A DNA stretch of 64,000 nucleotides, from positions 14,568 to 78,567 of the forward strand of contig DATDXE010000015.1 of assembly GCA_036517255.1 (NCBI GenBank), read 5' to 3'. Source of the DNA: Minisyncoccota bacterium. Its GTDB lineage: Bacteria; Patescibacteriota; Minisyncoccia; Phycocordibacterales; WO2-35-19. Shown one piece after another: positions 8,216 to 64,000 of this stretch. The stretch's first letter is position 1; every line of letters starts with the position of its first letter. A program made the position numbers and the translations under genes. The notes below the pieces were generated by a model, which made no database searches, was not told the origin of the DNA, and saw only the letters and a program-made list of their open reading frames with translations.

Positions 8216-8247
8216 ACTTGAGTTCATTAGCATTTTACACAAAACAA

Positions 8248-8520
8248 ATGAACTCCACTTTAAGCATTAGGATTAATAAAAAAATAAAAAAAGAGGCTAT
8301 GAATGTTTTCAGTAAACTTGGCCTTGATATTTCTTCTGGAGTAAAAATATTTCTTAATCAGGTAATTAACACTCGTTCTATCCCCTTCGAACCCAAAATG
8401 CATTATACGATGACTCCAAAACAAGAAAGATGGGTGATCAGACAAGTGAAAGAAGCAAAGAAGAATAGTAAAAGATACACAAGTATAGAAGAGTTACATA
8501 GAGATATTTTGGGTGAATAA
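8248..8520 (+). CDS. dinJ: RelB/DinJ family antitoxin
   Basis: LSIRINKKIKKEAMNVFSKLGLDISSGVKIFLNQVI...IPFEP matches the DinJ ribbon-helix-helix architecture. The start is more likely the internal ATG at 8248 than 8218. Confidence 0.6.
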   Translation: MNSTLSIRINKKIKKEAMNVFSKLGLDISSGVKIFLNQVINTRSIPFEPKMHYTMTPKQERWVIRQVKEAKKNSKRYTSIEELHRDILGE

Positions 8521-8799
8521 ATGCTTAGTGTATTTAGAACAAAAGCATATAGAAAAGCTATCAAAAAATATTCTGGATCTGGGAATTTTAATATTGAAAA
8601 AGTCGAATCTGTAATTAAAACTATTCAAAAAGGAGAAAAATTAGACAAAAAATACAGGAACCATGATTTAACAGGAAAGTACAGAGGAATAATGGAATGT
8701 CATATCAAACCAGATCTATTACTTCTTTATAAAATTGAGAAAGAAAATCTAATATTAATTTTGTTGAACTTAGGCAGTCACTCTGATTTGTTTGGGTAG
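8521..8799 (+). CDS. yafQ: YafQ/RelE family type II toxin (mRNA interferase)
   Basis: KYRNHDLTGKYRGIMECHIKPDLLLLYKI...LGSHSDLF is the YafQ C-terminal consensus. Its ATG immediately follows the antitoxin TAA. Confidence 0.7.
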   Translation: MLSVFRTKAYRKAIKKYSGSGNFNIEKVESVIKTIQKGEKLDKKYRNHDLTGKYRGIMECHIKPDLLLLYKIEKENLILILLNLGSHSDLFG

Positions 8800-8833
8800 T
8801 AGAGCCATATTTCATTAAGTAAATGCCTGGGCT

Positions 8834-8862
8834 TGACTTTTATACATAAAGTATGCTATAAT
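8834..8862 (+). promoter_or_regulatory. Near-consensus sigma70 promoter (TTGACT-17-TGcTATAAT, extended -10)
   Basis: -35 TTGACT 8834-8839; TG 8854-8855; TATAAT 8857-8862. The SD AAGGAGG 8867-8873 follows. Confidence 0.5.
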
Positions 8863-8880
8863 AACCAAGGAGGTAGCCCA

Positions 8881-9201
8881 ATGATATTGCGTGTTGGAAG
8901 TGTAGTGAAGTTCGTCTACAATCCAAGGAACGGCGAGCGGATCACCGACGTCCACTTGGACGGGGAAAATGTGGAGCTGTCATACGGCACCCAGCTTCAT
9001 TTTCACAATGGTTTGGATGTGAGACAGCCTGGGGTAGGTAGCAGTAAGATGTGGGTGCCAATCCCCGAAAACCTGAGGAAGGTGACCTATACGAAAAAAG
9101 ATGACCAAGTCGGCTTCATACCGATCGAGGAACCGGGGACATTCTTTCCGGTTCTGAAAATCGCCGGCGGACTAGCCACGATCATCTCCCTTCCTGAATA
9201 A
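8881..9201 (+). CDS. GC-rich small hypothetical protein (106 aa), foreign codon usage
   Basis: Perfect SD 8 nt upstream of ATG 8881. GC-rich third codon positions contrast with AT-rich neighbours. No recognisable family. Confidence 0.5.
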   Translation: MILRVGSVVKFVYNPRNGERITDVHLDGENVELSYGTQLHFHNGLDVRQPGVGSSKMWVPIPENLRKVTYTKKDDQVGFIPIEEPGTFFPVLKIAGGLATIISLPE

Positions 9202-9212
9202 CACTCAACACG

Positions 9213-9245
9213 GGCCGGTCCTTCGGGACCGGTCTATTCTTTTAT
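9213..9245 (+). terminator. GC hairpin (UUCG tetraloop) followed by a T-rich tract
   Basis: CCGGTCC-TTCG-GGACCGG, then TCTATTCTTTT. Confidence 0.45.
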
Positions 9246-9270
9246 ACATATGTTATGATAATAAAAAATT

Positions 9271-11184
9271 ATGTGTGGCATTGCTGGATATATTGGAAAT
9301 GGAGGCAATAAAGACAAACTAAAGGCAATGGCCAAAGCGTTAGAGAGGCGTGGGCCAGATGATGAGGGGTTTTATGAGACAAGTAGTGAAGGAAAAAAGG
9401 TAGGCTTCGCTTTCAGACGACTTTCTATAATAGATGTAGCAGGAGGTCACCAGCCTATTTCAAACGAAAATGGTGATGTGTGGGTGATGTTAAATGGTGA
9501 AATTTATGACTTCAAGCCTCTGCGAGAAAAACTATTAAATTTGGGGCACCAATTTAAAACTCAATCAGACACAGAAGTTATCGTTCACGCTTACGAAGAG
9601 TGGAGTGAAGAATGTTTTAAAAAATTGGACGGGATGTTCGCCATCGCTATTTGGGACTCGAAAAAGCAAAAGTTGACTCTAGCTCGCGATAGGCTTGGTA
9701 AAAAACCTCTTTATTACACTATTCAAAAAAATACCGGGGAAAGTACAATGTGGTTTGCTTCTGAACTAAAAGCCCTGATTGCGGTGGGTGCTTTCAAAAA
9801 AGAAATTGATCCTGAGTCTTTGAATTTATATTTCAGGACTGAAGCCGTGCCGACCCCTAAAACCATCTTTAAAGAAGTTTATAAATTAGAGCCAGCCACC
9901 TCTCTTTCTTTTGTTGATGGGAAAATAACGAAAAATAAATTCTGGAACTACCCGACAGAAACCATAGAAAACTTAGGCGCAGAAAATGTAGTAGAAGAAT
10001 TAGGAAAAAGGATAGATGAAAGTGTAAGAAAAAGATTGGTTTCTGACGTACCTCTAGGGCTTTTCCTTTCAGGAGGGCTTGATTCAGCGATAGTGGCAGA
10101 AAGCGCAAGTAGACAACACCCAGGGCTAGAAGCTTTCACCCTAGGATTTGAAGACAAAACTTATGACGAAACAGAGAATGCCAAAATAATAGCAAAAACT
10201 TTGGGTCTCAAACATCATATTGAGATTCTTTCAGAAGAAAAAGCTCTGGCCGTTTTAGAAGACGCAATAAATTTACTTGATGAGCCACTCGCTGACCCAT
10301 CTATTTTACCCCAACTTCTACTTTCAAAATTTACTAGAGAAAATGTGACTGTCGCTCTCTCTGGAGATGGAGGCGACGAACTACTCCTCGGTTACCAACA
10401 CATCCCCGCTCATATATGGAGAGAGAGATTGGATTTTCTGCCAGGAGCTTTTTGGAATATGAGTAAGAAAATTTTAAACACAGTGCCATCGGGAAGTGGC
10501 TATTTTAGTTTGGGGTTCAAAACTCAAAGACTTGCTCGCGGGCTTGATTTGGAAAACCGTCTTGAAAGAGATGCGACATGGCGAGGCGCATTTGATCAAG
10601 AAACTTTACAAAAGTTACTAAAGATGACCTTTGGGCTACCGCACCAAGGGTCATCTTTAGTAACTAACGAAGCTGAAAATATTTTAAAAGCTTACGCATC
10701 TGAAACTTCAAATCCTGAGAGTTGGTCAGCATGGAGCTGGGCATATTTAAGAACATTCCTCATGGACGACGTATTGGTGAAAGTAGATAGAGCAACCATG
10801 TGGCACTCTCTCGAAGCCCGCGCCCCACTCTTGGATACGAATGTTGTATCTTTTCTTTTGAGTTTACCCGATGAATACAAATTAGGAAAATACAGAGACA
10901 AAAGATTATTTAAAGAAATACTAAAGAAAAGATTGCCTGAATCTATTTTGAACGCCTCCAAACATGGCTTCGGTGTCCCTATTTCTAAATGGCTAAATGG
11001 GGTTCTAAAAAATAAATTGCTAGAAGTTTCTGACCCAGAATTTCTAAAAAAACAAAATTTATTTGATTCTTCAGCAATAGCAAAATTAATAAAAGAGCAT
11101 GCCGCAGGTGGTAAAGATCGCCGCAAAGAACTTTGGGCCTTTTTATGTTTCCAAATGTGGTACATTAGATGGCACATAAAATAA
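9271..11184 (+). CDS. asnB: Asparagine synthase (glutamine-hydrolysing) family amidotransferase
   Basis: MCGIAGYIG N-terminal Cys nucleophile; SGGLDSA PP-loop; 637 aa. Confidence 0.75.
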   Translation: MCGIAGYIGNGGNKDKLKAMAKALERRGPDDEGFYETSSEGKKVGFAFRRLSIIDVAGGHQPISNENGDVWVMLNGEIYDFKPLREKLLNLGHQFKTQSDTEVIVHAYEEWSEECFKKLDGMFAIAIWDSKKQKLTLARDRLGKKPLYYTIQKNTGESTMWFASELKALIAVGAFKKEIDPESLNLYFRTEAVPTPKTIFKEVYKLEPATSLSFVDGKITKNKFWNYPTETIENLGAENVVEELGKRIDESVRKRLVSDVPLGLFLSGGLDSAIVAESASRQHPGLEAFTLGFEDKTYDETENAKIIAKTLGLKHHIEILSEEKALAVLEDAINLLDEPLADPSILPQLLLSKFTRENVTVALSGDGGDELLLGYQHIPAHIWRERLDFLPGAFWNMSKKILNTVPSGSGYFSLGFKTQRLARGLDLENRLERDATWRGAFDQETLQKLLKMTFGLPHQGSSLVTNEAENILKAYASETSNPESWSAWSWAYLRTFLMDDVLVKVDRATMWHSLEARAPLLDTNVVSFLLSLPDEYKLGKYRDKRLFKEILKKRLPESILNASKHGFGVPISKWLNGVLKNKLLEVSDPEFLKKQNLFDSSAIAKLIKEHAAGGKDRRKELWAFLCFQMWYIRWHIK

Positions 11185-14369: not shown

Positions 14370-16047
14370 TCATATAACGATCGCGAGCTTCATATATTTT
14401 TTTACACGAATCAAAATACTTTCGATAAATACTATTCGGATCGACAGGAGGAGCATCGATTTCGAGGTAGTGGCCGGAGAAATTATTGATAGTTTCTATT
14501 TTTTGATTCTGATCAAAAATTGGCGAAGTATAAAGGCGTTTTTGATATTTACCAGTTTGCATTATTTCCCTGCCACCATTGTCATTGTAAACGACCACTT
14601 TTTTTATATCAGAATTATTTTTAATAAATTCCGCTGCATCACGCACAAGAGCTGGAGCATATCCGTTTATTTTACCGAATGTATATTCTTCAATAAATAC
14701 AGCGTTATAAAATAGCCCTAGAATCAAGAAGGCAACCCAAATTTCTTTTTGCAAATTCTTCTTCCATAAATACAACCCCGTGAACACTGCCCCCAAAATC
14801 CAAGATAGGGCAATAAAAATAAAAGAAACATAGAAAGTAAGAGGCCCAGAGCCACCGCTAAATGGATACAGGAAATTCCAGTTGAAAGAAAGTATCCTGT
14901 CTATCCACTCTGCCTTAGGGTGCAATGCTGGGACATATTGGTCTAGAAATTGAGTAAGGAAAACGAAGAAAACACAAAGCAGAAAAATTATTTTGCTAGC
15001 GTGCCTTCGTAGGAGCGACGGCGACGAAGAGAGAAAATTTTCAGCAGAAAATACTCCAGCAATAATACAAAGTGGCACAATCATGAATTGGAAGTAACGA
15101 TCCAGAGCTCCAGCTGAAAAATCGAAAAGAATGAGATAGAAAATTAATCCAAGTGCTAAGAAGAGATGAAATAATTTTAAGTCTTTACTATACGGCGATC
15201 CCACTTCGCTAAAGCTTCGCGGGACAAGCAAGGAAATAAGAAAAGATAAAACTAAAAATGGAGACAGATAAAATAGAGCTTTCACAAACTGGATACCGCT
15301 TTGGAAGAAATTCCTGCTGCCGAAGCCTTTCATAAAAGTTTCAGAGTAAGCTATTATTTTTTGCAAATCGAAACCTGGGAAAAGTTTTTGGGCTACAAAC
15401 ATAAGTAAGGCAACTAAAACAGCAAAAGAGATTAACCCACTTAAAGCATATAAAATGTTTTTACGATTAAGTTTTTCTTTATGATTCCAAACAAAATCGA
15501 GAATTAAGGCTCCAATAACAAGAGCAAAACTAAACTTAACCAACATTCCTAAGATGAGAGCGGCCACGAGCAAGCCACCAAATAAAAACTTTTTATTGCC
15601 AGTAGAAGAACTAAAATAATCATAAAACAAAATAGAAAGAAGAAAGAAGAAAGGTAGCACTGCCCCATCAGTATCTATCATAAGCGAAGCTAGAACTGAG
15701 AAAAATGAAAGAGCAAAAAATAGAGAAGACCAAAGAGCCGCCCCTACCCCGTACCGACGACGCACAATAATATAAATTAAAGTCAGGTTAATAAGAGAGA
15801 ATATAAGTGGCGTAACTCTAAAATTCTCATCTCCAAAAAAGTTCCGAGTAGCCCTATAGATGGCTTCACTAAGTGGAGGGTGTGGAATAACCCCCGGTTC
15901 AGTCAGTTCCGGATTTACAATTATCGGCCACTTGTATTCATCTTGGTGATATGGAGCGTGGATAGCAGGTAACCTTAAAGCAAAAAACAAAATAATGATA
16001 CCGAAGAACAACAGATATTCCTTTTTATTAGAAACAAAAGCCTGCAT
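14323..16047 (-). CDS. GT-C family membrane glycosyltransferase (ArnT / PMT_2-like, GT39/83)
   Basis: 574 aa and heavily polytopic. First-loop DE motif (HQDEYKW) is typical of ArnT/PMT enzymes. Confidence 0.5.
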   Translation of the reverse strand: MQAFVSNKKEYLLFFGIIILFFALRLPAIHAPYHQDEYKWPIIVNPELTEPGVIPHPPLSEAIYRATRNFFGDENFRVTPLIFSLINLTLIYIIVRRRYGVGAALWSSLFFALSFFSVLASLMIDTDGAVLPFFFLLSILFYDYFSSSTGNKKFLFGGLLVAALILGMLVKFSFALVIGALILDFVWNHKEKLNRKNILYALSGLISFAVLVALLMFVAQKLFPGFDLQKIIAYSETFMKGFGSRNFFQSGIQFVKALFYLSPFLVLSFLISLLVPRSFSEVGSPYSKDLKLFHLFLALGLIFYLILFDFSAGALDRYFQFMIVPLCIIAGVFSAENFLSSSPSLLRRHASKIIFLLCVFFVFLTQFLDQYVPALHPKAEWIDRILSFNWNFLYPFSGGSGPLTFYVSFIFIALSWILGAVFTGLYLWKKNLQKEIWVAFLILGLFYNAVFIEEYTFGKINGYAPALVRDAAEFIKNNSDIKKVVVYNDNGGREIMQTGKYQKRLYTSPIFDQNQKIETINNFSGHYLEIDAPPVDPNSIYRKYFDSCKKIYEARDRYMNAFIYDCQNAPDIKL

Positions 16048-16099
16048 TTACAATCACATAATACCAAATCTGCCCTCCAAATGAAGTCTCTCCTCTCCC

Positions 16100-16128
16100 T
16101 TGCAAAATAAGCTGTATTATGCTATAAT
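16100..16128 (+). promoter_or_regulatory. Near-consensus sigma70 promoter (TTGCAA-17-TGcTATAAT)
   Basis: It shares the 13-mer TATGCTATAATAA with the promoter at 8834-8862. The SD AAGGAG lies at 16172-16177. Confidence 0.5.
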
Positions 16129-16188
16129 AATGACTAGATTCTTAAAAATTCGTCCCAATACTGGGACAATACACAAGGAGAAGTATCC

Positions 16189-16593
16189 ATGGAAAATAAA
16201 GACCCGTATATGAACCGGCTAAAGTTGATAGGACCCCGAAAGGTAAAGAGGGGGGACAGGCTCATCGTCCAGACGAGGGGGGGAGGTAGTTTCAGTGGTG
16301 AACGGATCATCACGCTCCTCAAGAACCAAGAGCGGCGAGTCTACCCTCGCATCGGAACAGTGATCAGCTTTGCTGGTCCTGTAGAAGTGATCGGCTCGCG
16401 CGGCAGTGCTGCCGGCGGGGCAAGATCGCCTGGCGGCGTCATCGATGAAAGAATCGCGCGTATCACTAGCCGACAGGTACCTGACAACCCTAAGGAGTCA
16501 GCCCCTTGCCTGGAATTTCTGGGAAGTGGGCTGACACTGTTTCTCCACTTCATCCATCCGGGACAAGTAGCCCGCGTGTTGAAGGCTTCCTAG
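16189..16593 (+). CDS. GC-rich small hypothetical protein (134 aa), Gly/Arg/Ser-rich
   Basis: The ORF spans exactly the GC-rich block. It has an SD, GC-rich wobble positions, and a hairpin terminator downstream. Confidence 0.45.
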   Translation: MENKDPYMNRLKLIGPRKVKRGDRLIVQTRGGGSFSGERIITLLKNQERRVYPRIGTVISFAGPVEVIGSRGSAAGGARSPGGVIDERIARITSRQVPDNPKESAPCLEFLGSGLTLFLHFIHPGQVARVLKAS

Positions 16594-16613
16594 AGCCTCG
16601 CAGTTCCCTCCCC

Positions 16614-16652
16614 GGCCGTGCACACTTCGTGGTGCACGGCCATTTGTTTTGG
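16614..16652 (+). terminator. Intrinsic terminator (10-bp GC palindrome GGCCGTGCAC/GTGCACGGCC plus T-tract)
   Basis: Seen directly in sequence. The loop contains CTTCG. Confidence 0.5.
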
Positions 16653-16667
16653 TATTTTAGATGAGGT

Positions 16668-17312
16668 TTATTTCTGACTTACAAACAGCATCTGCCCTGC
16701 AAAAGGTTTCCAAGGAGAATTTATATAGAATCGGACAATAAATTTAAGTAAGGAATTTGGAATGATGGAAGAATTGGAACGCATAGAGAAAGGCAAAAAA
16801 CACGGCATCTTAAGAATTATTTTCATATCATGAGAGAGTAAGAAGCTTTCCAAAGCGGCATCACTAAAAACTTTTTTATGAGTCGGATCGTCAAAATAAT
16901 TAGCGGGCTGCAAACGGTAATTTGGTTGCATCAAAATTAACTTGCCTCCATTTTTCAAAACCCTCTTCACTTCCCCCATCACTTTCCCTAACTCCTCATC
17001 TGTAAAATGCTCAAATAAGTTACTGGCATGCACTACATCAACCGAAGCCTCCGGAATCAAAGCTAGATCCCAAGCCGGTGCCTTGATCAAGGTAATACCT
17101 GGGGCAGCGTAATTTGAAAGCTCAGGCGAAGTATCAATCGCGTATTTTTTGCTGGCTTTTATATTATTTATAAAATCACAATAACCTGCGCCCAAATCAA
17201 CCACCGTCGCCTCTTCTGGAATGTATTCTGATTCAAACTTAGTAATTTCCTTCCAAACAATGGAACGCCTGGCATCGAAAGTGTACCTGGATTCATAATA
17301 TTTATCTGTCAT
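16668..17312 (-). CDS. Class I SAM-dependent methyltransferase
   Basis: VVDLGAGYCDF motif I. Confidence 0.5.
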   Translation of the reverse strand: MTDKYYESRYTFDARRSIVWKEITKFESEYIPEEATVVDLGAGYCDFINNIKASKKYAIDTSPELSNYAAPGITLIKAPAWDLALIPEASVDVVHASNLFEHFTDEELGKVMGEVKRVLKNGGKLILMQPNYRLQPANYFDDPTHKKVFSDAALESFLLSHDMKIILKMPCFLPFSMRSNSSIIPNSLLKFIVRFYINSPWKPFAGQMLFVSQK

Positions 17313-28923: not shown

Positions 28924-29139
28924 TTAACTTTTGTCCTCTGAATAATTTTCTCCGATATTTCGGGCCACATAGAGCGCACTAAAATAGCGAGGCCTAAGAG
29001 AGACACGACAATGTGACGCATATTTCCAGGTATACCAAGGAATGGAATAACAAAGATAAGCAGGCCAGTTATAGGGTAAAACCTTTTCATTGCACACAGT
29101 ATAATTTCTAAATGACAAAAGGTAAAGCTTTTAAAGTTG

Positions 29140-29167
29140 TTGACTTAAAGAACTACGGCATTATAGT
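29140..29167 (+). promoter_or_regulatory. Sigma70-like promoter TTGACT-16-TATAGT
   Basis: Located inside the longer ORF alternative. It fits a start at ATG 29211, which has an AAAGGA SD. Confidence 0.35.
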
Positions 29168-29210
29168 ACAGAAAGAACGATTACACATTCTAGAGAAAGG
29201 AATAGGTCGA

Positions 29211-29735
29211 ATGGAGCAAGTACCACGCGTAGAAAAGACCAAAGATGGACTTCTGGTCATCCGGCTCCATGAAGTGCTGGTAGACCGAAGTCTTAGTTTC
29301 GAGGAAGCTGTGAGGCTCGGAGCTCCTGGCACAGGAGAGAACTCCTTCGTCTTCTTGTGCGAAGGCCAGTATTCACGAATGAATCAGAGTGAAATCAGGG
29401 AAGCCAGTTTTAGCGATATTTCCCTGCTGTCATTTAGAAGACGTTGGAAAAATAGTGAAGGCATCGAACACCTTGAATCAATCGGGCACAAAGGTGCTTC
29501 GCCCCAAGAAGTTTTGGCCATCGGGGGAAATTTCCCTCGATTAAACCAGAGCATGAGTAATTACGCTCCCCCATCGATGTATGTGACCAGTGTACGTGGT
29601 TGCTTCATCGGTATTCGGAGATGTTTTTTCTGTCTTGCATTCGGAGCAGAGCAGCCGATAGCAGGTCTGACTTCTTCATACGCCGGATGGCATCGAGCCG
29701 ACGAATGGCTCGCAGTCATTGGTAACGTAGAATAG
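29211..29735 (+). CDS. GC-rich hypothetical protein (about 174 aa; 207 aa if it starts at 29112)
   Basis: The GC-rich codon block starts near 29190. No recognisable family; Cys-rich C-terminus. Confidence 0.4.
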   Translation: MEQVPRVEKTKDGLLVIRLHEVLVDRSLSFEEAVRLGAPGTGENSFVFLCEGQYSRMNQSEIREASFSDISLLSFRRRWKNSEGIEHLESIGHKGASPQEVLAIGGNFPRLNQSMSNYAPPSMYVTSVRGCFIGIRRCFFCLAFGAEQPIAGLTSSYAGWHRADEWLAVIGNVE

Positions 29736-29736
29736 C

Positions 29737-29794
29737 CTCCGCTTCTTGGTAAATTCCTTCTGGGAAATACAAGAAGCGGAGCGTTTGTTTATTT
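29737..29794 (+). terminator. Intrinsic terminator (12-bp stem CTCCGCTTCTTG/CAAGAAGCGGAG plus T-tract)
   Basis: Seen directly in sequence. Confidence 0.5.
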
Positions 29795-30052
29795 AATATT
29801 TTTATTAAAATACTCCTTCAGCATCATCTTTAAAGACGATTTTCCTTTATCTGTTTTGAAATATTTTTCCCTTCTTTTAGCGTCAGTTATATTTTTGTAA
29901 GCCTCGTAAAAAATTAGATCAAGAGGTCTTCGTGGCTTAGTAGAAGGAACCTCTCCTTTTTCATGTTCTTCAAATCTTCTTTTCAAATTCTCTGAATAGC
30001 CTATGTATAACTTTTTATCTTTTAGACTTCGTAAAATATAGACGTAGTACAT
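29789..30052 (-). CDS. GIY-YIG nuclease family protein (YhbQ/UPF0213-like)
   Basis: YYVYILRS...LYIGYSENLKRRFEEH matches the GIY-YIG motif; about 88 aa. Confidence 0.6.
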   Translation of the reverse strand: MYYVYILRSLKDKKLYIGYSENLKRRFEEHEKGEVPSTKPRRPLDLIFYEAYKNITDAKRREKYFKTDKGKSSLKMMLKEYFNKNIK

Positions 30053-30137
30053 GTGGTGCACATGCACCATGTGAGGTGCATGGCTACCATAAACCTACTT
30101 CGGTTTTCTGGCAAAGCCATAAACCCTACGTGGTTTA

Positions 30138-30213: not shown

Positions 30214-30413
30214 GAATTTTTCCCAAGAGCGAAGCGATTGGTTGAAAAATTCAGCGTCCAGTTGTATTCAACTGGGAAGAATTTTCCGCTTTTGGTGGGC
30301 TTAAAAAATCTAACATAAAATTTTATAAAAGTTAAATCCCGTGAGAGAGGCTTGTAAGCCTACATCTCACGGGACGAGTGTCATCCCTAATAACCCCCCA
30401 AGGATGGGCACTC

Positions 30414-30740
30414 TTATCGGATACTGCGTGCGGCAGGCTTCTTGCCCGCAAGAGCCCGGCTCACCGCAGCCATACTTCTGTCGAAATTGGGGGGCTTTGG
30501 AGCATACTCAAACGCTCCATAAACTGGCGGTTTCGCCCTGGGCGTCTTCATAGCCAGCTCGTACTTCTTAGCTGACCTGAAGTCAGCTTTGATAGTAGGC
30601 CCAGCGACAAAAGCAACCAAAGCAACCACAACCGCCAAAGTCCCTAACGAAACCAGGCCGCTCACGGTGGGCGTGGCATCAAACATAGCCACAACCAACA
30701 CAAGAAAAACCATAGCAAGAATTCTAAGAAATTTTCCCAT
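30414..30740 (-). CDS. GC-rich small membrane protein (108 aa, 2 TM, basic C-tail)
   Basis: GGAGG SD; two hydrophobic helices; foreign GC-rich codon usage. Confidence 0.4.
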   Translation of the reverse strand: MGKFLRILAMVFLVLVVAMFDATPTVSGLVSLGTLAVVVALVAFVAGPTIKADFRSAKKYELAMKTPRAKPPVYGAFEYAPKPPNFDRSMAAVSRALAGKKPAARSIR

Positions 30741-30764
30741 AGCGAGAAAATCCTCCTGCCCTGT

Positions 30765-30793
30765 ATTATATCATAATCTACTATTAAATGCAA
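30765..30793 (-). promoter_or_regulatory. Consensus-like sigma70 promoter TTGCAT-17-TATAAT (minus strand)
   Basis: Reverse complement of 30765-30793. Confidence 0.45.
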
Positions 30794-30810
30794 GTAAAAA
30801 TTTAGACAGC

Positions 30811-30839
30811 AAAAAAGCCCTTATTTTAAGGGCTTTTTT
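30811..30839. terminator. Bidirectional intrinsic terminator (AAAAAAGCCCTTA-TTT-TAAGGGCTTTTTT)
   Basis: A-tract/stem/T-tract symmetry. It ends the 16S transcript on the minus strand. Confidence 0.6.
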
Positions 30840-31188
30840 GCTCGCCGGTTGGCGAAATAATATTCTTTGTTTTGTTCCGTCCTACTATTTAGTTTTCTGC
30901 TGTCTTTCCAGCTGCCACCCGCCTGTAACGCTATGCTTAGCATTGCGGGCAGGTACCATTTTAAGTTGTGATCAAACTATTGCGCACTCGATCGAGTTGC
31001 ACAATATCGACTGTCATTCCTTTCCTCCGACATAAGTCAGAGAAGAGGAAATTTTCACCTTGAAATATTCCACGAGCAGCTTCCGCTACCCGTGCCTTGT
31101 TACGACTTACTCCCTGTCATTGAGCTTACCTTAGTCCCACTTGCGTGAGCCTTTGGGTACTCCCAACTCCCTTGAGTTGACGGGCGGA

Positions 31189-32075
31189 TTGTGATTTTCT
31201 CACATCCCCTGAAGTATTTAATATAAATACTTCACCATACTGCTTCCCATCATTTCACAGTTTTGGACGTAGCGAGCAGATTTCCTGCACTACGCGAGCC
31301 CGATAGTTTTCAAATTCATTTTTGCTTTTAGCTTCCTGATTCTCTCTAAACCATCTTTAGTAAGATGATCTTTTGATTGAACTAGTTTGGCTACTTTACA
31401 AAATAATTCAAAATTTTTCTGTTTAGAAAAACTCTGAAGAGGATATTGTTTGAAAAATGGGATCAATATTTTAAGAACATCTGAATATGAACTTATGCTG
31501 TATCTATAGCATTGAGCATGGTTAACTCTCTGCTCTTTTTGAAAATACACAGCTCCACATTTCAGAGTATTCTTAACTTTTTCCAGAAGGAATCTATCTT
31601 TCTCCTGCATTTTTATATGAAAATGCAATTGAACATTAAACCCCATTCTGTAGAGAGAAGATTTTCTTACATTTACGTAAAAACATCCTTCTCCATCCGT
31701 TAATCCTACAATATACTCATTTGAAACTATCGGTTTTGTCCTTTCCACACATATTTAATATTATTGTTTTAATTATAACATTAAGTTGACGCATGGTACT
31801 ACGACTCAGCTGACTCCCAGCACTAATTTAGTGCTGGGTCTCCCAGGGTCATTTATAACTCCTTTCCAAACATCCCAACGAAGATTTTTGTTCGTGCTTC
31901 CTTCAGACTCACCGCAGAAGTCGCACATCTCTTTTTTGATCGGGCTACCTTTCGCTACTAGGATCCTTCGGTCCTCACATTACTGTAGGGGACCTACCCG
32001 TTCGCTAAATTGCTTTCGCAACTATCAGACTTTAACTGATTGGATTTATAAACTGCCTGGCGCCTTTAATTTTGA
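31189..32075 (-). mobile_element. Intervening sequence / intron-like insertion in 16S near E. coli position about 1390-1400, carrying a homing endonuclease ORF
   Basis: The conserved TGTACACACCGCCCGT block is split: GTACAAG sits at 32076-32082 and GACGGGCGG at 31180-31188. Confidence 0.65.
31290..31748 (-). CDS. LAGLIDADG homing endonuclease (single-motif)
   Basis: IVGLTDGEGCF dodecapeptide motif; 152 aa; same orientation as the rRNA. Confidence 0.7.
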   Translation of the reverse strand: MERTKPIVSNEYIVGLTDGEGCFYVNVRKSSLYRMGFNVQLHFHIKMQEKDRFLLEKVKNTLKCGAVYFQKEQRVNHAQCYRYSISSYSDVLKILIPFFKQYPLQSFSKQKNFELFCKVAKLVQSKDHLTKDGLERIRKLKAKMNLKTIGLA

Positions 32076-32298
32076 GTACAAGACTTGAGAACGTATTCAC
32101 CGCGGTATAGCTGACCCGCGATTACTAGCGATTCCAACTTCATGGGGTCGAGTTTCAGCCCCCAATCCGAACTGGCGCCACTTTTCTTAGGATTAGCTCA
32201 GTCTTGCGACGTCGCGACCCGTTGTAGTGGCGATTGTATTATGCGTGTAGCCCAAGGCGTCAGAGGGACATGCTGACCTGGCGTCATCCTCGCTTCCT

Positions 32299-32441
32299 CC
32301 CAGCACGAAGTGAACGAAGTTCACTTCAAGTAAAAAGTTCATAAAGTTATAAAGTTTTTAAAGTAAGGAAAATTCTTACTTTATAACTTTACAAACTTTC
32401 AACTCCTTAACTCGAAGTGCGTTCACGCACTTTGTGCTGGG
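32299..32441 (-). other. 16S expansion segment of about 120 nt (V7 region), AT-rich nested palindrome
   Basis: The interval between the GGAGGAAG...GACGTC block and CATGCATCACCTG is about twice the canonical length. Outer stem CCCAGCACGAAGTG/CACTTTGTGCTGGG; inner AAGTTATAAAGT/ACTTTATAACTT. Confidence 0.5.
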
Positions 32442-33792
32442 CAGTCTCGGCTGACACTTGTAACAGCCAACGAGGGTTGCGTTCGTTACCCCACTTAAGG
32501 GAACAACTCAAATCACGAACTGACGACGGCCATGCATCACCTGTTCAAGTGTTCTTGCGAACGTTTACATTTCTGTATTCTTCACTTGAATTTCTAGCCT
32601 TGGTAAGGTTTTTCGTTTGTTGTCGAATTGAACCGCATAATCCACCGCTTGTGCAAGTCCCCGTCTATTCCTTTGAGTTTTAAGCTTGCGCTCGTACTAC
32701 CCAGGCGCCTCTCTTAACGCGTTAGCTTCGCCTCCCAGAGGGTCGATACTCCGGAAAGCTAGAGAGGAACGTTTAGGGCGTAGACTACGCGGGTATCTAA
32801 TCCGCTTCGCTACCTACGCTTTCGTGTTTCAGTGTCAGGAGTGCGCCAGTGAATTGCCTTCGCTTTTGGTGTTCCCCATGATATCAACGGATTTCACCCC
32901 TACTCCATGAGTTCCATTCACCCCTCGCATCCTCAAGCTCTGCCGTTTCTTTCGCATTTCTCCAATTAGGTCGGAGTCTTTAACGAAAGACTAACAGTGC
33001 CACCTACACACCCTTTACGCCCAGTGATTCCGGATAACGCTTGGGGCCTCTGTATTACCGCTCCTGCTGGCACAGAGTTTGGAGCCCCTTATTCATGAGG
33101 TACTATCGTCCCGAAGGATTTCTCCCTCATAAAAGACCTTTACGTCCCGAAGGACTTCATCAGTCACGCGGCGTCGCTCGATCAGGCTTTCGCCCATTGT
33201 CGAATATTCTCGGCTGCAGCCACCCGTAGGTGTATGGACCGTTTCTCAGTTCCATCGGTGGGGGTCAGCCTCTCAGCTCCCCTAAGCGTCATAGCCTTGG
33301 TAAGCCATTACCTTACCAACTAGCTGATACTCCGCAGGCTCTTCCTTAAGCGTCTTGCGACTTTACTCTTACGAGACTATTTGGGATTACCTCCTCTTTC
33401 GAGAAGCTATACCAAACTTAAGGGAAGATACCTACGTGTTACTACCTCGTCTGCCGGTACCTCGGTCTTGCGACCTCGGCCCCTTGACTTGCATGCCTTA
33501 TCCACGCCGCCAGCGTTCATCCTGAGCTAGGATCAAACTCTAAATATAATTAGACGGAACAAAACGAAGAATACTATATCCTGTCATTTCATATTTTCTA
33601 ATTTTTCAGTTTGATCTTCTAACTCAAAAAATCATTGTTTGTGTGTACTTATTTTATTACTCAAAGAAATATAGACTAGGACTTACATCTCAATCTTATA
33701 TATTTCTTATTTCAAGTATGAAAATGTCAAAGACCAATCAAAACTCCCCACGAAGGAGAGCAGGGTAAAGTATAAGGATAAAAATAGGCCTG

Positions 33793-41151: not shown

Positions 41152-41493
41152 CTATTTTTTAGTTTCAGTGGTTGATTTAGCGGCTTGAGCGGCGGAAATT
41201 TCAGCTTCCTTCTTTTTAGCTTCGAGTTCTTTCTGCATTTTACCTCCATGCCTTACGAATTTGCGAGTAGGAGAAAATTCACCCAAACGATGACCTACCA
41301 TATCTTCAGAAATCAAAACTTCTACGTGAACCTTGCCATTGTGAACACCGAAAATGAAACCTACCATTTCAGGAGCGATGACGCAGGCTCGCGACCATGT
41401 TTTAATAACCCCAGTTTCTACAGGTTTCTTGCCCTCGATCTTTTTCAAGACTCGAGGATCAACATATGGGCCTTTTTTCAGTGATCGCGACAT
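41152..41493 (-). CDS. rpsS: 30S ribosomal protein S19 (with K/A/E-rich C-terminal extension)
   Basis: [11 protein letters not shown]... Confidence 0.85.
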
Positions 41494-41588
41494 ACAAAAA
41501 ACGCGTGAGCGTTGTTTGGGATATTAACATAAGGTTTTGACACACGCAAACCTTAAATAGGGCAAGATGACTCTTTTTAGATTAGGGC

Positions 41589-41616
41589 TTGACATTTAGT
41601 TAAATATGAGTAGGGT
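41589..41616 (+). promoter_or_regulatory. Conserved promoter-like element TTGACA-16-TAGGGT (copy 1 of 3)
   Basis: TTGACA 41589-41594; TAGGGT 41611-41616. The shared block TATGAGTAGGGT also occurs in copy 2. Confidence 0.4.
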
Positions 41617-41672
41617 GAGCACCAGAGCCCGTCTCAATAGAAGAGGCGGGACGATCGAAGGAGAGAAAGAAA

Positions 41673-42254
41673 ATGAAAAATACGCGCTGGGCCATTCTGG
41701 CCCTGATTGCGCTGATTTCGCTCACGGTTTCGCCCGTGAGCGCCCTGCCGGTACTTAGTGTGGAGGTCGGCTTCAGCAACCTGCCGCTCGAAGGAGTTGT
41801 GGCGCCGGTGTCACCGGGAGCAACGGGCATCGATTTTTCGAGCCTGATGCAGTCGGCGCCGGGATGCGCCGGGGCCAACATGGCCCTATGCGGCATGGGA
41901 TCGGTCGTTTTCTCAAGCACCGACTTCGACAGTGGCGTCGCGTTCAGCATGATTCTGGGGCCAAGCCTCACGTATACCACAAGCGGACCGTGGAGCGCGG
42001 CCGGCGGACCGGGAGGAAGCTTCAGCATTAGCACGCTCGGGACATACACCGCTGCAGGGTATGACCCCACGGCCGGAAGCATGAACCTGACGTTTCAACC
42101 CCCGCCAGTAGCAGGCAACTATTCGTTTTCGGCAAGCGGCGCCACATCGCCGGTGCCCGAACCGAGTTCAATCATCTTGATGAGCGGCGGCCTCATCGGC
42201 TTCTACTTCATCAACCGGCGTCACCAGTTCCGGCAACACCAGCGGAAAACCTAG
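41673..42254 (+). CDS. Secreted PEP-CTERM domain protein 1 (GC-rich)
   Basis: Sec signal MKNTRWAILALIALISLTVSPVSA. C-terminus PVPEPSSIILMSGGLIGFYFINRRHQ has the PEP motif, a TM helix and an Arg cluster. A GGAG SD is present. Confidence 0.7.
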   Translation: MKNTRWAILALIALISLTVSPVSALPVLSVEVGFSNLPLEGVVAPVSPGATGIDFSSLMQSAPGCAGANMALCGMGSVVFSSTDFDSGVAFSMILGPSLTYTTSGPWSAAGGPGGSFSISTLGTYTAAGYDPTAGSMNLTFQPPPVAGNYSFSASGATSPVPEPSSIILMSGGLIGFYFINRRHQFRQHQRKT

Positions 42255-42283
42255 CGACTTGCGGCAACGCCGGTCGCACAACC

Positions 42284-42318
42284 ATCGGCCCCGAGCAATC
42301 GGGGCTGATTTCTTTTAT
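42284..42318 (+). terminator. Hairpin (GNRA loop GCAA) plus T-tract; near-identical to the one after the second PEP-CTERM gene
   Basis: GCCCCGA-GCAA-TCGGGGC, then TGATTTCTTTT. Confidence 0.5.
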
Positions 42319-42341
42319 AAAAATAAAACTGTTTATAACGT

Positions 42342-42369
42342 TTGACATTGAAGCAAATGTGAGTAGGGT
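42342..42369 (+). promoter_or_regulatory. Conserved promoter-like element TTGACA-16-TAGGGT (copy 2)
   Basis: TTGACATT...TGTGAGTAGGGTAAG. Confidence 0.4.
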
Positions 42370-42432
42370 AAGTTTCAGAGTCGGGCCAATTTATAGGATC
42401 CGACCAAGAACCAAGCAAGGAGAGAGTTAACG

Positions 42433-43077
42433 ATGAAGAAAAATGTTTGTTGGGCCATTCTGGCCCTGATTGCGCTGATCACGCTCACGGTTTCGCCCGT
42501 GAGCGCAACAACGGTGATCGATTTCACCAGCCCAATTTACTCCGGAGCCACCGGAAACACGACCTTCGCCGTCGTCGATCAGGGGATTTTCAACAACCTG
42601 ACGGCAAGCGGCGGGGTCCTGAACTGGACACCCGGGGGCGGACTCGGAATCAACGGGCCAACTTCGCTCGACGATCCGAGCGAAATCGGACTCCTGGAAG
42701 TGCTGGGAGATGGATTGGTTCCACCGCTCATGACCCTTTATGACATCTACCTAGGGGACATCTACACCAGCGAATTTCTGACCGGCACCGAGCAGGCGCA
42801 GTATCGCATCAACGGTGGGGCGTGGATTACCGTGAGCGCAGTCACTCCCACTTCCGGGTCGGGCCTGCTCACGATTTCAGTGAACTTGGACAACGTCTCC
42901 CAGATCGACTTCCGGGCGACGAAGTTGGGTTCCGACTTCAGCGTCCGCGGCTACAGCGCCGAAGTCGTGCCCGAGATGAGTACCATCTTCCTTTCGGGAA
43001 CTGGTCTACTCGGCCTGGGATTGTGGGCTCAGATCAACATCCGGCGCAGGCGGCAACGGGAACAGCAGAAAACCTGA
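42433..43077 (+). CDS. Secreted PEP-CTERM domain protein 2 (GC-rich)
   Basis: Signal MKKNVCWAILALIALITLTVSPVSA is nearly identical to that of protein 1. C-terminus VVPEMSTIFLSGTGLLGLGLWAQINIRRRRQ. Confidence 0.7.
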   Translation: MKKNVCWAILALIALITLTVSPVSATTVIDFTSPIYSGATGNTTFAVVDQGIFNNLTASGGVLNWTPGGGLGINGPTSLDDPSEIGLLEVLGDGLVPPLMTLYDIYLGDIYTSEFLTGTEQAQYRINGGAWITVSAVTPTSGSGLLTISVNLDNVSQIDFRATKLGSDFSVRGYSAEVVPEMSTIFLSGTGLLGLGLWAQINIRRRRQREQQKT

Positions 43078-43107
43078 ACCTTTGCGGCTTGCAAATGCCG
43101 CACAACC

Positions 43108-43141
43108 ATCAGCCCCGAGAAATCGGGGCTGATTTATTTTT
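43108..43141 (+). terminator. Hairpin (GAAA tetraloop) plus T-tract
   Basis: GCCCCGA-GAAA-TCGGGGC, then TGATTTATTTT. Confidence 0.5.
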
Positions 43142-43164
43142 AATCCGCCAGCTGGCGGAACCCC

Positions 43165-43193
43165 TTTACATTTTAAAAAGTTTATGCTAGGGT
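43165..43193 (+). promoter_or_regulatory. Conserved promoter-like element TTTACA-17-TAGGGT (copy 3)
   Basis: TTTACATT...TTATGCTAGGGTCACC. Confidence 0.35.
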
Positions 43194-43239
43194 CACCTCG
43201 GCCATGAAGTTTGTGGTACTTTGAGAATGAGGTAAAGAA

Positions 43240-43893
43240 ATGCTACATCGGAGGCTGTGCCTAGTTGTTTTGATTTTCACTTTACTGGCTGCAGCGGCGA
43301 CTGCAGGACCAATGGTCTATTTCGAAAAGGAAGAGTGGAAGGAAGCGCTAGGGAACAACGCCTCCTATGTGAGCGATAGCCTCAAGGGCGGCCCAAGCGA
43401 GATCTTCGATCTCGAGAGCGGCTGGGAGCTCTCCGGCTATAAGGAGAACGGTTTTTACGACCAGGTGTCGATCAAGAAAGACAACGAGAGTAGCTACTCG
43501 TTGCTCTCCGGAGCTCCTATGTACGCCTGGGGAGCGAATTTCGACACGGCGCCCATGGATCAGGGCAACGGCTTCTGCTTTTCCTTCCAGTACGTCGGAG
43601 GAAGCAGTGATTCGGCCGAATGCTTCAACCGCGATCCCTTTATCCAAGGGTTCGTCGGATTCGTGTTCAGTACCGGAGTCGAGAGCATCGTGCTCCAGAC
43701 TAGTACTGGACCTCACTCCCCGCTCCAGGAAACGTACCTGGTATGGGATATGATCGCAGTGACGAGCATGGGAGGTGGAGGAGGAGGCCCCGGCCCACCA
43801 TCTCCAAGCGAGGTACCGGAACCAGGAAGTCTCGGCCTAATCGGCCTGGGACTGGTTTATTTCGGAATCATGACCCGTCGGAGACAGGAATAA
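43240..43893 (+). CDS. Secreted PEP-CTERM domain protein 3 (GC-rich; Gly/Pro linker)
   Basis: Signal peptide; GGGGGGPGPPSPSE linker; C-terminus VPEPGSLGLIGLGLVYFGIMTRRRQE. Confidence 0.7.
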   Translation: MLHRRLCLVVLIFTLLAAAATAGPMVYFEKEEWKEALGNNASYVSDSLKGGPSEIFDLESGWELSGYKENGFYDQVSIKKDNESSYSLLSGAPMYAWGANFDTAPMDQGNGFCFSFQYVGGSSDSAECFNRDPFIQGFVGFVFSTGVESIVLQTSTGPHSPLQETYLVWDMIAVTSMGGGGGGPGPPSPSEVPEPGSLGLIGLGLVYFGIMTRRRQE

Positions 43894-43918
43894 CGAGTAC
43901 CTTGCGGCAACGCCGCGA

Positions 43919-43955
43919 CGGCCCCCCACCAGTTTGGTAGGGGGCCGTTATATAT
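43919..43955. terminator. Strong GC hairpin between convergent PEP-CTERM gene 3 and rplB
   Basis: CGGCCCCCCACC-AGTTT-GGTAGGGGGCCG. A/T-rich on the plus side. Confidence 0.5.
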
Positions 43956-43969
43956 TATGATTTTATTAT

Positions 43970-44824
43970 TTAGCCTTTCCTCTGCTTACCTACTTTCCTA
44001 CGAGACACAATAAATTTATTTGAATATTTTTTGACTCGGCGTGATTTTTGGCCTTTGCCAGTCGGTTTGCCCCACATAGAAACAGCTCGCCTGCGGCCCC
44101 TACCTTGACGGCCTTCACCTCCTCCGTGTGGGTGATCCACAGGGTTCATAGCGGTACCACGAACAGTAGGTCTAATGCCCTTCCACCTACTCCTACCTGC
44201 TTTACCATAATTTTCCAACCTTTTTTCTTCATTAGAAACTTCACCGACTGACGCCCAAGCATTTTCACTTACTTTTCGCACTTCAGTCGAAGGCATTTTC
44301 AAATCCACCATCCCCGCATCCTTAGCTAAAACTTGTATAAACACTCCAGCAGAACGACCCAGCTTCGCTCCACTCTTCGGTTTAATTTCTGCATTGTAAA
44401 CAAAAGTACCAATAGGGATATTCTTGAGTTGTAAACGATTTCCTTGTTTCAGTGGAGCGCCTTCTGCAGTTACAAGCTCTTCCCCCACCTTCACTCCTCG
44501 AGGCAATAATACATATCGCTTTTCACCATCTTTATACACGGCGAGGCCGATAAGACCGGTGCGATTTGGATCGTATTCGACAGAAGCTATCTTATAAGGC
44601 ACTCCGATTTTGTCATACTTAAAATCAATCTCTCGCCAAAGCCTTTTTACTCCTGCTCCTTTATGTCTAGTCGTGACTCGACCAAAAGCATTGCGACCAA
44701 CCTTTCTGTGATGACCAGAAGTAAGCGATTTTTCTGGATTGCTTGTAGTGGTAACACCCTTATAGGCGACAACGCTCATGTGCCTGCGTGATTTCGATGT
44801 TGGTTTGTAAGTTTTTATTGCCAT
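43970..44824 (-). CDS. rplB: 50S ribosomal protein L2
   Basis: TRHKGAGVKR...NPVDHPHGGGEG. Confidence 0.85.
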   Translation of the reverse strand: MAIKTYKPTSKSRRHMSVVAYKGVTTTSNPEKSLTSGHHRKVGRNAFGRVTTRHKGAGVKRLWREIDFKYDKIGVPYKIASVEYDPNRTGLIGLAVYKDGEKRYVLLPRGVKVGEELVTAEGAPLKQGNRLQLKNIPIGTFVYNAEIKPKSGAKLGRSAGVFIQVLAKDAGMVDLKMPSTEVRKVSENAWASVGEVSNEEKRLENYGKAGRSRWKGIRPTVRGTAMNPVDHPHGGGEGRQGRGRRRAVSMWGKPTGKGQKSRRVKKYSNKFIVSRRKVGKQRKG

Positions 44825-62994: not shown

Positions 62995-64000
62995 TCATAT
63001 TTCTTTCCAACTCAATATTTCATACTGATCAGAGGTGAGGGGGAAAGAAGGTGGTGGACCATAAAGAAGATTGGCATCATAATTGATATTTCTAGTTCCA
63101 TATCCAGTACTATCAGTGTAAGCAAATCCATAACGCTGATATGTCGCTATCATTCCATAAAGAGTAATGGTGCTTCTGACATAATTTGAGCCGCAACTAC
63201 TATTGTAGTAATACCTGCCCACTCGACCATTCTGCGACACTATAGCCGCATCAATTATTAAATCATTTTCCGAAACTAGCCCCACATTAAAATTGCCTTG
63301 GGCAATAAGAGCGATAACATCACTACCATTATAGTTAGTATATTTTAAATCATTATTTACTGTAAATTGTGGCCTGTTTGAAGGGTTATCGGGAAACCTG
63401 CCATTTGCGATAGTCGCTCTTGCCGTATTTATCGTCCCTTCAACCCATACATTATCTTCTATGAAAATCAGTCCGTTAGCTGGTATTGCATAGTTACCGA
63501 CAAGTGTTTTGTTATTGATACTCCAAGTGCCCCAGCCAGTTTGAGTAGAACTGCAACCACTTTGAGGATTTATTTGCGAAGTTACAGTGTAAAGATCGAA
63601 AGTGTCATTGGTTTTTAAAATAATTTGATAACCCTGACTACCTGATGCGGCAAAATATCGACCGCTAGCTTGCGCATTTGCTTTTATAGTCGACAGGTCA
63701 CTCGTCAGCCCCACAAAATCGACAGCTGGTACCGGAAACTGTCTGCCTGCTTCGAAGATGTCAGCCCTAGTCGGCACGGGCGTAGTCGGTGGCGCTTCAT
63801 TAGAACGAAAAGTGTCGTTTACTCCACTTCCTGGAGGAGCGTTCACATGGGTATGGACACCAAATTCATTATTACCCGTATGATCAGGATCATCCATGCT
63901 TTGCACTGCTGCAGTCACTGCGTTGTGAGCCAAACCATCGAAACGAAGTCCTTGGTTTACATGTATTGGCCCAAAAACTTCCGTACCCTGACCAAAACGC
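62995..64000 (-). CDS. Partial (C-terminal part) secreted Thr/Asn/Gly-rich protein; the ORF continues past the window end
   Basis: Open frame runs to the edge; no motif recognised. Confidence 0.3.
   Translation of the reverse strand, partial: RFGQGTEVFGPIHVNQGLRFDGLAHNAVTAAVQSMDDPDHTGNNEFGVHTHVNAPPGSGVNDTFRSNEAPPTTPVPTRADIFEAGRQFPVPAVDFVGLTSDLSTIKANAQASGRYFAASGSQGYQIILKTNDTFDLYTVTSQINPQSGCSSTQTGWGTWSINNKTLVGNYAIPANGLIFIEDNVWVEGTINTARATIANGRFPDNPSNRPQFTVNNDLKYTNYNGSDVIALIAQGNFNVGLVSENDLIIDAAIVSQNGRVGRYYYNSSCGSNYVRSTITLYGMIATYQRYGFAYTDSTGYGTRNINYDANLLYGPPPSFPLTSDQYEILSWKEI

Follow-up and report, generated by a model that had tools for sequence, protein, structure and literature searches.

A moron-like single-gene unit, probably foreign, in a glycosylation operon of a Paceibacterota bacterium

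Cassette 2 is a short GC-rich transcription unit, with bounds taken as ~16082-16667, in a 64-kb stretch of contig DATDXE010000015.1 (the whole stretch is called the window below) from a groundwater-type Candidatus Paceibacterota bacterium of the Candidate Phyla Radiation (CPR), or Patescibacteria. We consider it probable that this unit is a self-contained, monocistronic piece of foreign DNA that was inserted antisense into the chromosome in the manner of a phage moron, and that the 13-mer common to its promoter and that of a second GC-rich unit, cassette 1, reflects convergence on a promoter consensus. A preliminary description of the window had proposed that the cassettes carry imported genes, and for the single open reading frame (ORF) of cassette 2, ORF2, this proposal is supported at the sequence level by five lines of evidence, namely composition, codon usage, the use of Shine-Dalgarno (SD) sequences, synteny and flanking duplications. 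Single genes are known to be acquired in the form of autonomous units, and cassette 2 is a fresh example of this type of event. Since the shared 13-mer is ordinary promoter consensus, the finding as originally stated is of low value; the locus matters as a clean example of accessory-gene gain by an ultra-small CPR genome, with what would be a complete foreign transcription unit in a conserved envelope-glycosylation operon, a duplication of the target that can still be seen and what looks like a replacement promoter for the downstream gene.

Anatomy of cassette 2

The expression signals of cassette 2 form a complete set on the plus strand. The promoter (16100-16128) consists of the -35 element TTGCAA (16100-16105), a 17-nt spacer and the extended -10 element TATGcTATAAT of the TRTG type (16118-16128, with TGcTATAAT at 16120-16128); the hexamer agrees with the consensus at 6/6 positions and the -35 element at 4/6, and TG stands directly upstream of the hexamer. 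It is followed by a leader of ~53 nt that includes the hairpin GTCCCA-ATAC-TGGGAC (16150-16169) in the 5' untranslated region, and by the SD sequence AAGGAG (16175-16180), 8 nt upstream of the ATG at 16189. ORF2 (16189-16593) encodes 134 amino acids at a GC content of 0.56 and a third-codon-position GC content (GC3) of 0.61; an alternative start at M8, giving 127 amino acids, is the form called in one assembly. The unit closes with an intrinsic terminator (16614-16651) made of a perfect 10-bp GC-rich stem, an 8-nt loop and a T-rich tail (GGCCGTGCAC-8-GTGCACGGCC at 16614-16641, then ATTTGTTTTG), which has the top terminator score within 8-18 kb; in consensus scans, the promoter and terminator signals of both cassettes rank among the top in that interval. 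The TTGCAA-17-TGcTATAAT promoter, the AAGGAG, the 134-aa ORF and the 10-bp terminator stem all lie where the preliminary description had placed them. What the sequence shows of cassette 2 is its anatomy, its coding status, its foreign composition and its insertion as compared with other genomes; promoter activity, translation and function are inferred.

On the minus strand, ATTTTTAAGA comes after the leader hairpin, which in this orientation has the score of a terminator and may block transcripts that run on from the methyltransferase operon next to the cassette. Several reading frames are open across the stop-poor GC-rich stretch. One of them is a 70-aa antisense ORF (16341-16553), which had been set aside as probably spurious; this is reasonable, given that it lies entirely within ORF2, that ORF2 has homologues and that several frames are open.

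Synteny and the insertion footprint

The window belongs to a metagenomic contig of 103 kb (ENA ERZ27254767 k141_704214). Cassette 2 stands in an extended run of genes for glycosyltransferases, methyltransferases and sugar-modifying proteins, with a GC content of ~0.38 around it (background ~0.36-0.42). Its neighbours, both on the minus strand, are a class I methyltransferase gene (16668-17312) and a PMT_2-family glycosyltransferase gene with its ATG at 16047. Among 62 loci of related Patescibacteria that were collected by way of PMT_2, the methyltransferase orthologue (MT214) lies directly upstream of PMT_2 with a gap of 0-61 nt in L039, L018, L069, L059, L052 and L063, and with a gap of 33-36 nt, by tblastn coordinates, in L067 and L068; its identity to the window's gene is 57-75% in the closer genomes and 36-45% in the more distant ones. 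The corresponding interval in the window measures 620 nt and contains the antisense cassette. Relative to these other genomes, cassette 2 is an insertion, and none of the 62 loci contains a relative of ORF2.

The two sides of the cassette carry what appears to be the footprint of this insertion. The relic TTTGGAGGGCAGAT, 20 nt upstream of the PMT_2 ATG, is a 13/14 copy of the methyltransferase codons F-A-G-Q-M (TTTGCAGGGCAGAT), which stand intact 622 nt away, at 16690-16703. The left flanking repeat accordingly spans 16048-16084, with the core ATCTGCCCTCCAAA at 16068-16081, and the right one 16679-16706, with the core ATCTGCCCTGCAAA at 16690-16703, inside the intact methyltransferase 3' end; the direct repeats thus have a 14-nt core and extend over possibly ~30 nt. 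Their score was matched in 15/2000 shuffles and in 0.7% of real-sequence control pairs. Inverted repeats at the ends of the cassette are limited to one 9-mer, which is expected by chance. There is no transposase, and there is no integrase or recombinase among the called genes within 10 kb on either side.

In the course of events that we propose, the methyltransferase and PMT_2 genes would originally have been adjacent and co-oriented in a cell-envelope glycosylation operon, and the unit would have been inserted antisense between them together with its own promoter, leader hairpin, SD sequence, ORF of foreign composition and strong terminator. The insertion would have duplicated part of the methyltransferase 3' end, and the copy beside PMT_2 would then have decayed. 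The decayed copy offers an extended -10-like sequence, TGgTATTAT (16058-16066, minus strand), 10 nt upstream of the PMT_2 start codon, as a candidate replacement promoter, with a short or absent leader, for a gene that would have been cut off from its operon. Cassette 2 itself would be transcribed constitutively from a strong housekeeping-sigma promoter, and its terminator would protect the convergent methyltransferase gene.

Composition and translation signals

The composition of ORF2 is foreign to its surroundings. Its GC3 compares with values of 0.23-0.48 in ~60 native ORFs (~0.33 being typical), and its relative synonymous codon usage correlates negatively with that of native genes (r = -0.24) and positively with that of the window's other GC-rich genes. 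The GC content of ORF2 is not accounted for by high expression, since the ribosomal-protein and EF-Tu genes of the window have an ordinary GC3 of 0.33-0.39.

The same division is seen in the translation signals. An SD-like 4-mer is missing from 33 of the 38 called native genes, about what chance would give, and only 5 have a match of at least 4 nt, whereas an SD sequence of at least 5 nt precedes every one of the six GC-rich genes (ORF1, ORF2, ORF3 and three PEP-CTERM genes). The distinction between SD-led GC-rich and SD-less native genes provides an easy way of recognising imported genes from sequence in genomes of this kind. An extended -10 element is found only 6-12 nt before the ATG in several native genes (HIT at 60775, asnB at 9271 and PMT_2 at 16047), and this short distance suggests leaderless or near-leaderless mRNAs.

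The 16S rRNA gene (31058-33548, minus strand) contains an intron of ~885 nt (~32072-31188) with a LAGLIDADG-type ORF (31748-31290). In the Rfam match over the whole window the gene stopped, erroneously, at 32034, while the actual 3' exon lies at 31260-31058 (73 bits). Once the intron is recognised, the 16S rRNA ends in ...GUGGAAUAUUUCAAGG, to be compared with ...CUGGAUCACCUCCUU in the bacterial consensus. In its 3' tail, GGAAUAUUUCAAGG stands in place of the consensus GGAUCACCUCCUU, and CCUCC is absent, so that the canonical anti-SD sequence is missing at its canonical place; a UUUCCUCUUCU stretch lies ~10-20 nt further 3'. A 16S rRNA of this kind raises the question of how imported genes are translated.

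ORF2 belongs to a very rare protein family

An exhaustive phmmer search of 1.84 billion representatives returned two distant homologues of ORF2, P0002 (154 aa, E 1e-12) and P0003 (131 aa, E 7e-9), each 41% identical to ORF2 in a near full-length alignment. The family alignment (P0001, P0002 and P0003) has 29 invariant columns over ~115 aligned residues, with the conserved motifs GDR..V.T..GG..SG.R, GT.I.F, R.P.G and H.I.PGQ. The ORF2 product itself, of 14.6 kDa and pI 10.9, displays GDRxxVxT..GG..SG.R and HFIHPGQ motifs and a Gly/Arg-rich linker. At 12.7% Gly and 11.2% Arg it is as rich in these two residues as had been noted before, while Ser, also named at the time, is only moderately frequent (7.5%). 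The genes of the two homologues have unrelated surroundings: that of P0002 follows glyQS in L002, and that of P0003 lies in L003, downstream of a ClpP-like gene and tRNA genes; both are host-like in GC content (GC3 0.45 and 0.36, respectively). In nine contigs from nine samples the sequence of cassette 2 is identical apart from a single synonymous polymorphism in ORF2, GAC -> GAT, so that the cassette is not an assembly artefact. ORF2 thus truly codes for a protein, and its family, with three members among ~15 billion predicted proteins, is very rare and a genuine orphan.

Wider searches did not enlarge this family. Word-indexed protein searches with ORF2 and with its profile found the three known members only; no relative turned up when viral, genome and metagenome collections were scanned by back-translation, or when phage and plasmid records were searched with tblastn, which covers 2.9 million viral contigs, 50,697 phage records and 185,579 species-representative genomes. 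The FG-GAP/VCBS repeat protein P0004 was rejected as a homologue, as it matches only residues 27-52 of ORF2, seven times over, a resemblance at the level of a motif. An orthologous beta-lactamase-like gene (33% identity) is found in the vicinity of ORF2 as well as of P0003; a conserved neighbourhood was rejected in view of 68 more loci of that gene family without an ORF2 relative.

No match to ORF2 or its two homologues was obtained in Pfam, PHROGs, NCBIfam or PADLOC, and a profile search of the PDB gave only the oligonucleotide/oligosaccharide-binding (OB) fold of CTC1, at an insignificant E of 1.8. AlphaFold2, run on the three-sequence alignment, predicted an all-beta structure at a predicted local distance difference test (pLDDT) of 38, which is unusable. 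As a tentative guess, prompted by its small size, its high pI, the Gly/Arg-rich linker and the all-beta prediction, the product might be a small, beta-barrel-type, nucleic-acid-binding accessory protein.

One might ask whether the locus encodes a protein at all. A strong promoter, a GC-rich segment and a terminator in an AT-rich genome are the classic signature of a structured non-coding RNA, in which case ORF2, one of several open frames, would be an accident of stop-poor GC-rich sequence; the full cassette 2 transcript also folds with a z-score of -3.47. The z-score of the ORF alone is -1.33, however, so that the stability of the transcript comes from the 5' hairpin and the terminator, and Rfam matched only the 16S rRNA, tRNA-Ile and one chance snoRNA in a window-wide search and in one of the cassette 2 locus that admitted E values up to 10. 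Given furthermore that SD sequence and ATG are correctly spaced, and that the full-length protein homologues are encoded in loci that are not GC-rich, we attach almost no credence to this alternative.

Import or native origin

A gene of another kind found at the same position bears on whether ORF2 was imported at all. Just upstream of PMT_2 and on the opposite strand, a DUF218-like gene of 190-235 aa (DUF218 match at E 0.0011, below the Pfam cut-off) is found in L038, L023, L024, L049, L064, L012, L026, L044, L010 and L013. It is 0.08-0.15 GC-richer than its genome and has diverged to ~24% identity; in several loci its signals comprise an SD sequence, a hairpin terminator and an extended -10 promoter, either TTG-17-TRTGnTATAAT or a similar one. 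That it is GC-rich in spite of such divergence indicates that a high GC content can persist, and composition thus does not date the event that brought ORF2 to the locus.

One could therefore argue that ORF2 is native and vertically inherited, and that its GC content, SD sequence and signals reflect selection for high or special expression, as a GC-rich, SD-led, consensus-promoted gene has been kept at this very junction through deep divergence. The near-invariance of cassette 2, which is fixed in the sampled population, and the host-like AT-richness of its promoter and leader would both agree with this. Vertical inheritance is, on the other hand, difficult to reconcile with the absence of any ORF2 relative from the 62 related loci and the species-representative genomes, with the abutment of the flanking genes in eight relatives and with the relic of the methyltransferase 3' end that marks the insertion. 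Nor do the ribosomal-protein and EF-Tu genes show the elevated GC3 that such selection would call for, and the homologues of ORF2 are not GC-rich in their own hosts. We consider a native origin unlikely.

Several observations nevertheless weigh against insertion of a foreign unit. The flank repeat of cassette 2 is short and its significance modest (p ~0.007). There is no empty-site allele, as all nine contigs carry the cassette, and the nearest reference genomes share at most 52% (PMT_2) and at most 75% (methyltransferase) protein identity with the window; with the nearest genomes this distant and no empty site in a close relative, the insertion is undated. At least six relatives carry the DUF218-like gene, another antisense GC-rich gene, at the same methyltransferase/PMT_2 junction. 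The promoter and leader (16082-16188), AT-rich like the host, may have been recruited or have evolved in place rather than been imported, and an SD sequence would be useless if the host ribosome truly lacks an anti-SD sequence. Finally, the functional guess draws on composition, the pLDDT-38 model and the insignificant OB-fold match, and is held with low confidence.

The shared 13-mer

The 13-mer TATGCTATAATAA occurs as an exact match at 16118-16130 and 8852-8864 on the plus strand, in the -10 regions of cassettes 2 and 1, as had been observed, and is confined to these two places. The preliminary description took it to suggest either co-regulation or a common mobile promoter module. The window contains only these two matches even with one mismatch allowed (0.19 expected; two or more in 1/100 shuffles), and a further 17 kb of the same contig adds neither another copy nor another TGnTATAAT; both copies precede GC-rich ORFs. 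A repeated 13-mer is in itself not rare, since 370 distinct 13-mers recur in the window, as compared with ~107 in block shuffles. Given two TGnTATAAT promoters, the chance of agreement at the five other positions is p ~0.002, but two of these five (T and A) belong to TRTG, leaving c, A and A as free positions with p ~0.03 per promoter pair. The 13-mer is in fact the TRTGnTATAAT extended -10/"-16" consensus followed by AA, so that 11 of its 13 bases are published consensus: TRTG is the -16 consensus of Firmicutes-type promoters (PMC6570832; PMC12641261), and the TRTGnTATAAT promoters of Firmicutes are those of Voskuil and Chambliss, as cited in the same two papers.

Around this block the two cassettes have little in common. 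The promoter of cassette 1 (8833-8862, plus strand) reads TTGACT, an 18-nt spacer and TATGcTATAAT, and thus differs from that of cassette 2 in its -35 element (TTGCAA in cassette 2), in the length (18 against 17 nt) and sequence of its spacer and in its leader, which is ~12 nt long against ~53 nt with a hairpin. Beyond the 13-mer, no similarity between the cassettes was found at the DNA or protein level. Cassette 1 continues on the plus strand with the SD sequence AAGGAGG (8867-8873), ORF1 (8881-9201; 106 aa, GC 0.51, GC3 0.62) and a terminator (9212-9235). It is bracketed by an imperfect direct repeat: the left copy, CTTTTATACATAAAGTATGCTATAATAA (8837-8864, 28 nt), includes the -10 block, and the right copy, CTTTTATACATATGTTATG--ATAATAA (9239-9264), stands directly 5' of the ATG of the resident asnB gene (9271). 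The copies are identical at 23/28 nt with a 2-nt gap, an alignment score matched in 1/2000 shuffles and in 0/300 real-sequence control pairs. As the repeat recurs before asnB, the 13-mer of cassette 1 belongs to locally duplicated, AT-rich promoter DNA outside the GC-rich segment.

The bracketing repeats of the two cassettes invite the thought that both units entered as small circular or linear DNAs through short-homology (Campbell-type) recombination, the promoter block being the microhomology and the 13-mer the recombination footprint. The 26-28-nt repeat around cassette 1 contains the -10 block, cassette 2 is likewise bracketed, and such scores are rare among real-sequence control pairs. 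The repeat of cassette 2, however, is unrelated to its promoter and copies coding sequence of the target, which a target duplication fits better; two further GC-rich units, cassette 3 and the PEP-CTERM trio described below, have no flanking repeats, and no recombinase or integrase gene is found nearby. Entry by this route appears very unlikely to us.

A mobile promoter module or regulator site, transferred with or between imported genes, would have to be judged by what else is shared. The 13-mer is identical and occupies the same promoter position in both cassettes, and all three full TTG-17/18-TRTGnTATAAT promoters of the 64-kb window precede GC-rich ORFs. In 1.09 Mb of related loci, 8/8 such promoters likewise have GC-richer DNA downstream (mean +0.107). 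At least four of these eight, however, and by position probably six, drive orthologues of the DUF218-like gene, so that the sites are not independent, and the apparent clade-wide link between consensus promoter and GC-rich DNA is mostly explained by the DUF218-like gene. With identity confined to a consensus block, and with the cassette 1 copy lying in a duplication linked to asnB, the mobile module is not supported, and we regard it as highly unlikely. Co-regulation holds in the trivial sense that both promoters resemble constitutive housekeeping-sigma promoters; no operator-like sequence common to both cassettes was found. The opposite suspicion, that the 13-mer is merely the house consensus, is right in that the motif is a strong-promoter consensus, but leaves aside that it is rare and that the three full examples in the window all stand before GC-rich ORFs. 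As read from the promoters, the shared 13-mer is a convergence on the TRTGnTATAAT strong-promoter consensus, with no common ancestry of a promoter module. TATGCTATAAT is also found upstream of unrelated genes in the Patescibacteria loci L017 and L010. In L017, from another Paceibacterota metagenome-assembled genome, TTGACA-17-TATGCTATAAT (~16192, minus strand) precedes a 90-aa ORF with SD sequence and terminator, whose GC content is 0.51 in a locus of 0.35; this is an independent case that resembles the cassettes of the window.

Other GC-rich units and neighbouring features

A protein search with ORF1 returned only ORF1 itself, its single-sequence AlphaFold2 model had an unusable pLDDT of 41, and neither ORF1 nor ORF3 matched Pfam, PHROGs, NCBIfam or PADLOC. 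Directly upstream of cassette 1 lies a RelB/YafQ type II toxin-antitoxin pair (8218-8799), where two assembly breaks fall; 8 polymorphisms within 8248-8316, in relB, form the only between-sample cluster.

Cassette 3 (30300-30842, minus strand), built in the same style, occupies the spacer between the 16S 3' end and tRNA-Ile (30213-30138). It comprises a hairpin (30842-30808), the promoter TTGCAT-17-TATGATATAATAC (~30798-30765), the SD sequence CAGGAGG, a 108-aa membrane-protein ORF (30740-30414; GC ~0.53) and, on its 3' side, a hairpin with a T-rich tract (30374-30317). A small GIY-YIG-like ORF (29789-30070, minus strand) adjoins tRNA-Ile, and beside it is a 207-aa ORF (29112-29735, plus strand) of GC 0.47 without a Pfam match.

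The PEP-CTERM trio consists of paralogous tandem genes on the plus strand (41673-42254, 42433-43077 and 43240-43893, in the region 41494-43969) with a GC content of 0.55-0.61 and a GC3 of 0.64-0.73. Each has a signal peptide, an SD sequence and a promoter-like TTGACA element, the terminators of PEP1 and PEP2 are near-identical, and two of the three genes reach the Pfam PEP-CTERM cut-off. The trio sits antisense between rplB (43970-44824, minus strand) and rpsS (41152-41493, minus strand) and splits a ribosomal-protein operon that is otherwise universally conserved; PEP-CTERM proteins are unexpected in a CPR bacterium. Flanking repeats were looked for around cassette 3 and the trio, and none were found.

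At the right edge of the window (62995-64000 and beyond; L075, 12221-14890), an ORF forms part of a 486-aa gene without Pfam matches, which is followed just beyond the edge by a reverse-transcriptase (RVT_1) gene; the two may constitute a diversity-generating retroelement or a retron.

It is conceivable, if decidedly unlikely, that Paceibacteria carry a circulating pool of single-gene cassettes, each with a TRTG extended -10 promoter, an SD sequence, a GC-rich ORF and a terminator, which enter essentially SD-less genomes without a canonical anti-SD sequence by an undescribed recombinase-independent route that leaves target duplications of 14-30 nt. If this were true, the cassettes would either be translated by a non-SD route despite their SD sequences or be built for more than one cellular background, for example that of a donor or a host lineage.

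Comparison with known systems

The closest parallel in position is the DUF218-like (YdcF/ElyC-type) junction gene, which has the same position and orientation as cassette 2 and is likewise GC-rich, with a TTG-17-TRTGnTATAAT promoter, an SD sequence and a hairpin terminator. It shares no DNA or protein similarity with ORF2 and is absent from the window; a relationship between the two was rejected.

Integron gene cassettes are promoterless, end in attC and form arrays beside an integrase (intI, attI). The units described here resemble them in being small, single-gene and of foreign composition, but each is equipped with a promoter and an ordinary terminator hairpin, which in cassette 2 is a simple 10-bp stem followed by a T-tract, and they are scattered, with no integrase nearby. 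The promoters of the cassettes compare with the TRTGnTATAAT promoters of Firmicutes, the 13-mer being TRTG, n, TATAAT and AA with a TTG-type -35 element at 17-18 nt; here, however, the host is a CPR bacterium, the promoter is read from sequence, and the full consensus is found in the window only before GC-rich genes.

A moron is an independent transcription unit added to a genome, such as gene 15 of HK97 (PMC3594210). Phage morons reside in prophages, whereas the neighbours of cassette 2 are chromosomal glycosyltransferase and methyltransferase genes, and ORF2 has no match among PHROGs, the viral contigs or the phage records; because of this chromosomal, non-phage location, cassette 2 falls outside the moron class as far as location is concerned. 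In its build it nonetheless corresponds closely to a moron, with its own promoter and terminator as identified by consensus scans, a single accessory gene of deviant GC content and a location at which relatives have the two flanking genes side by side.

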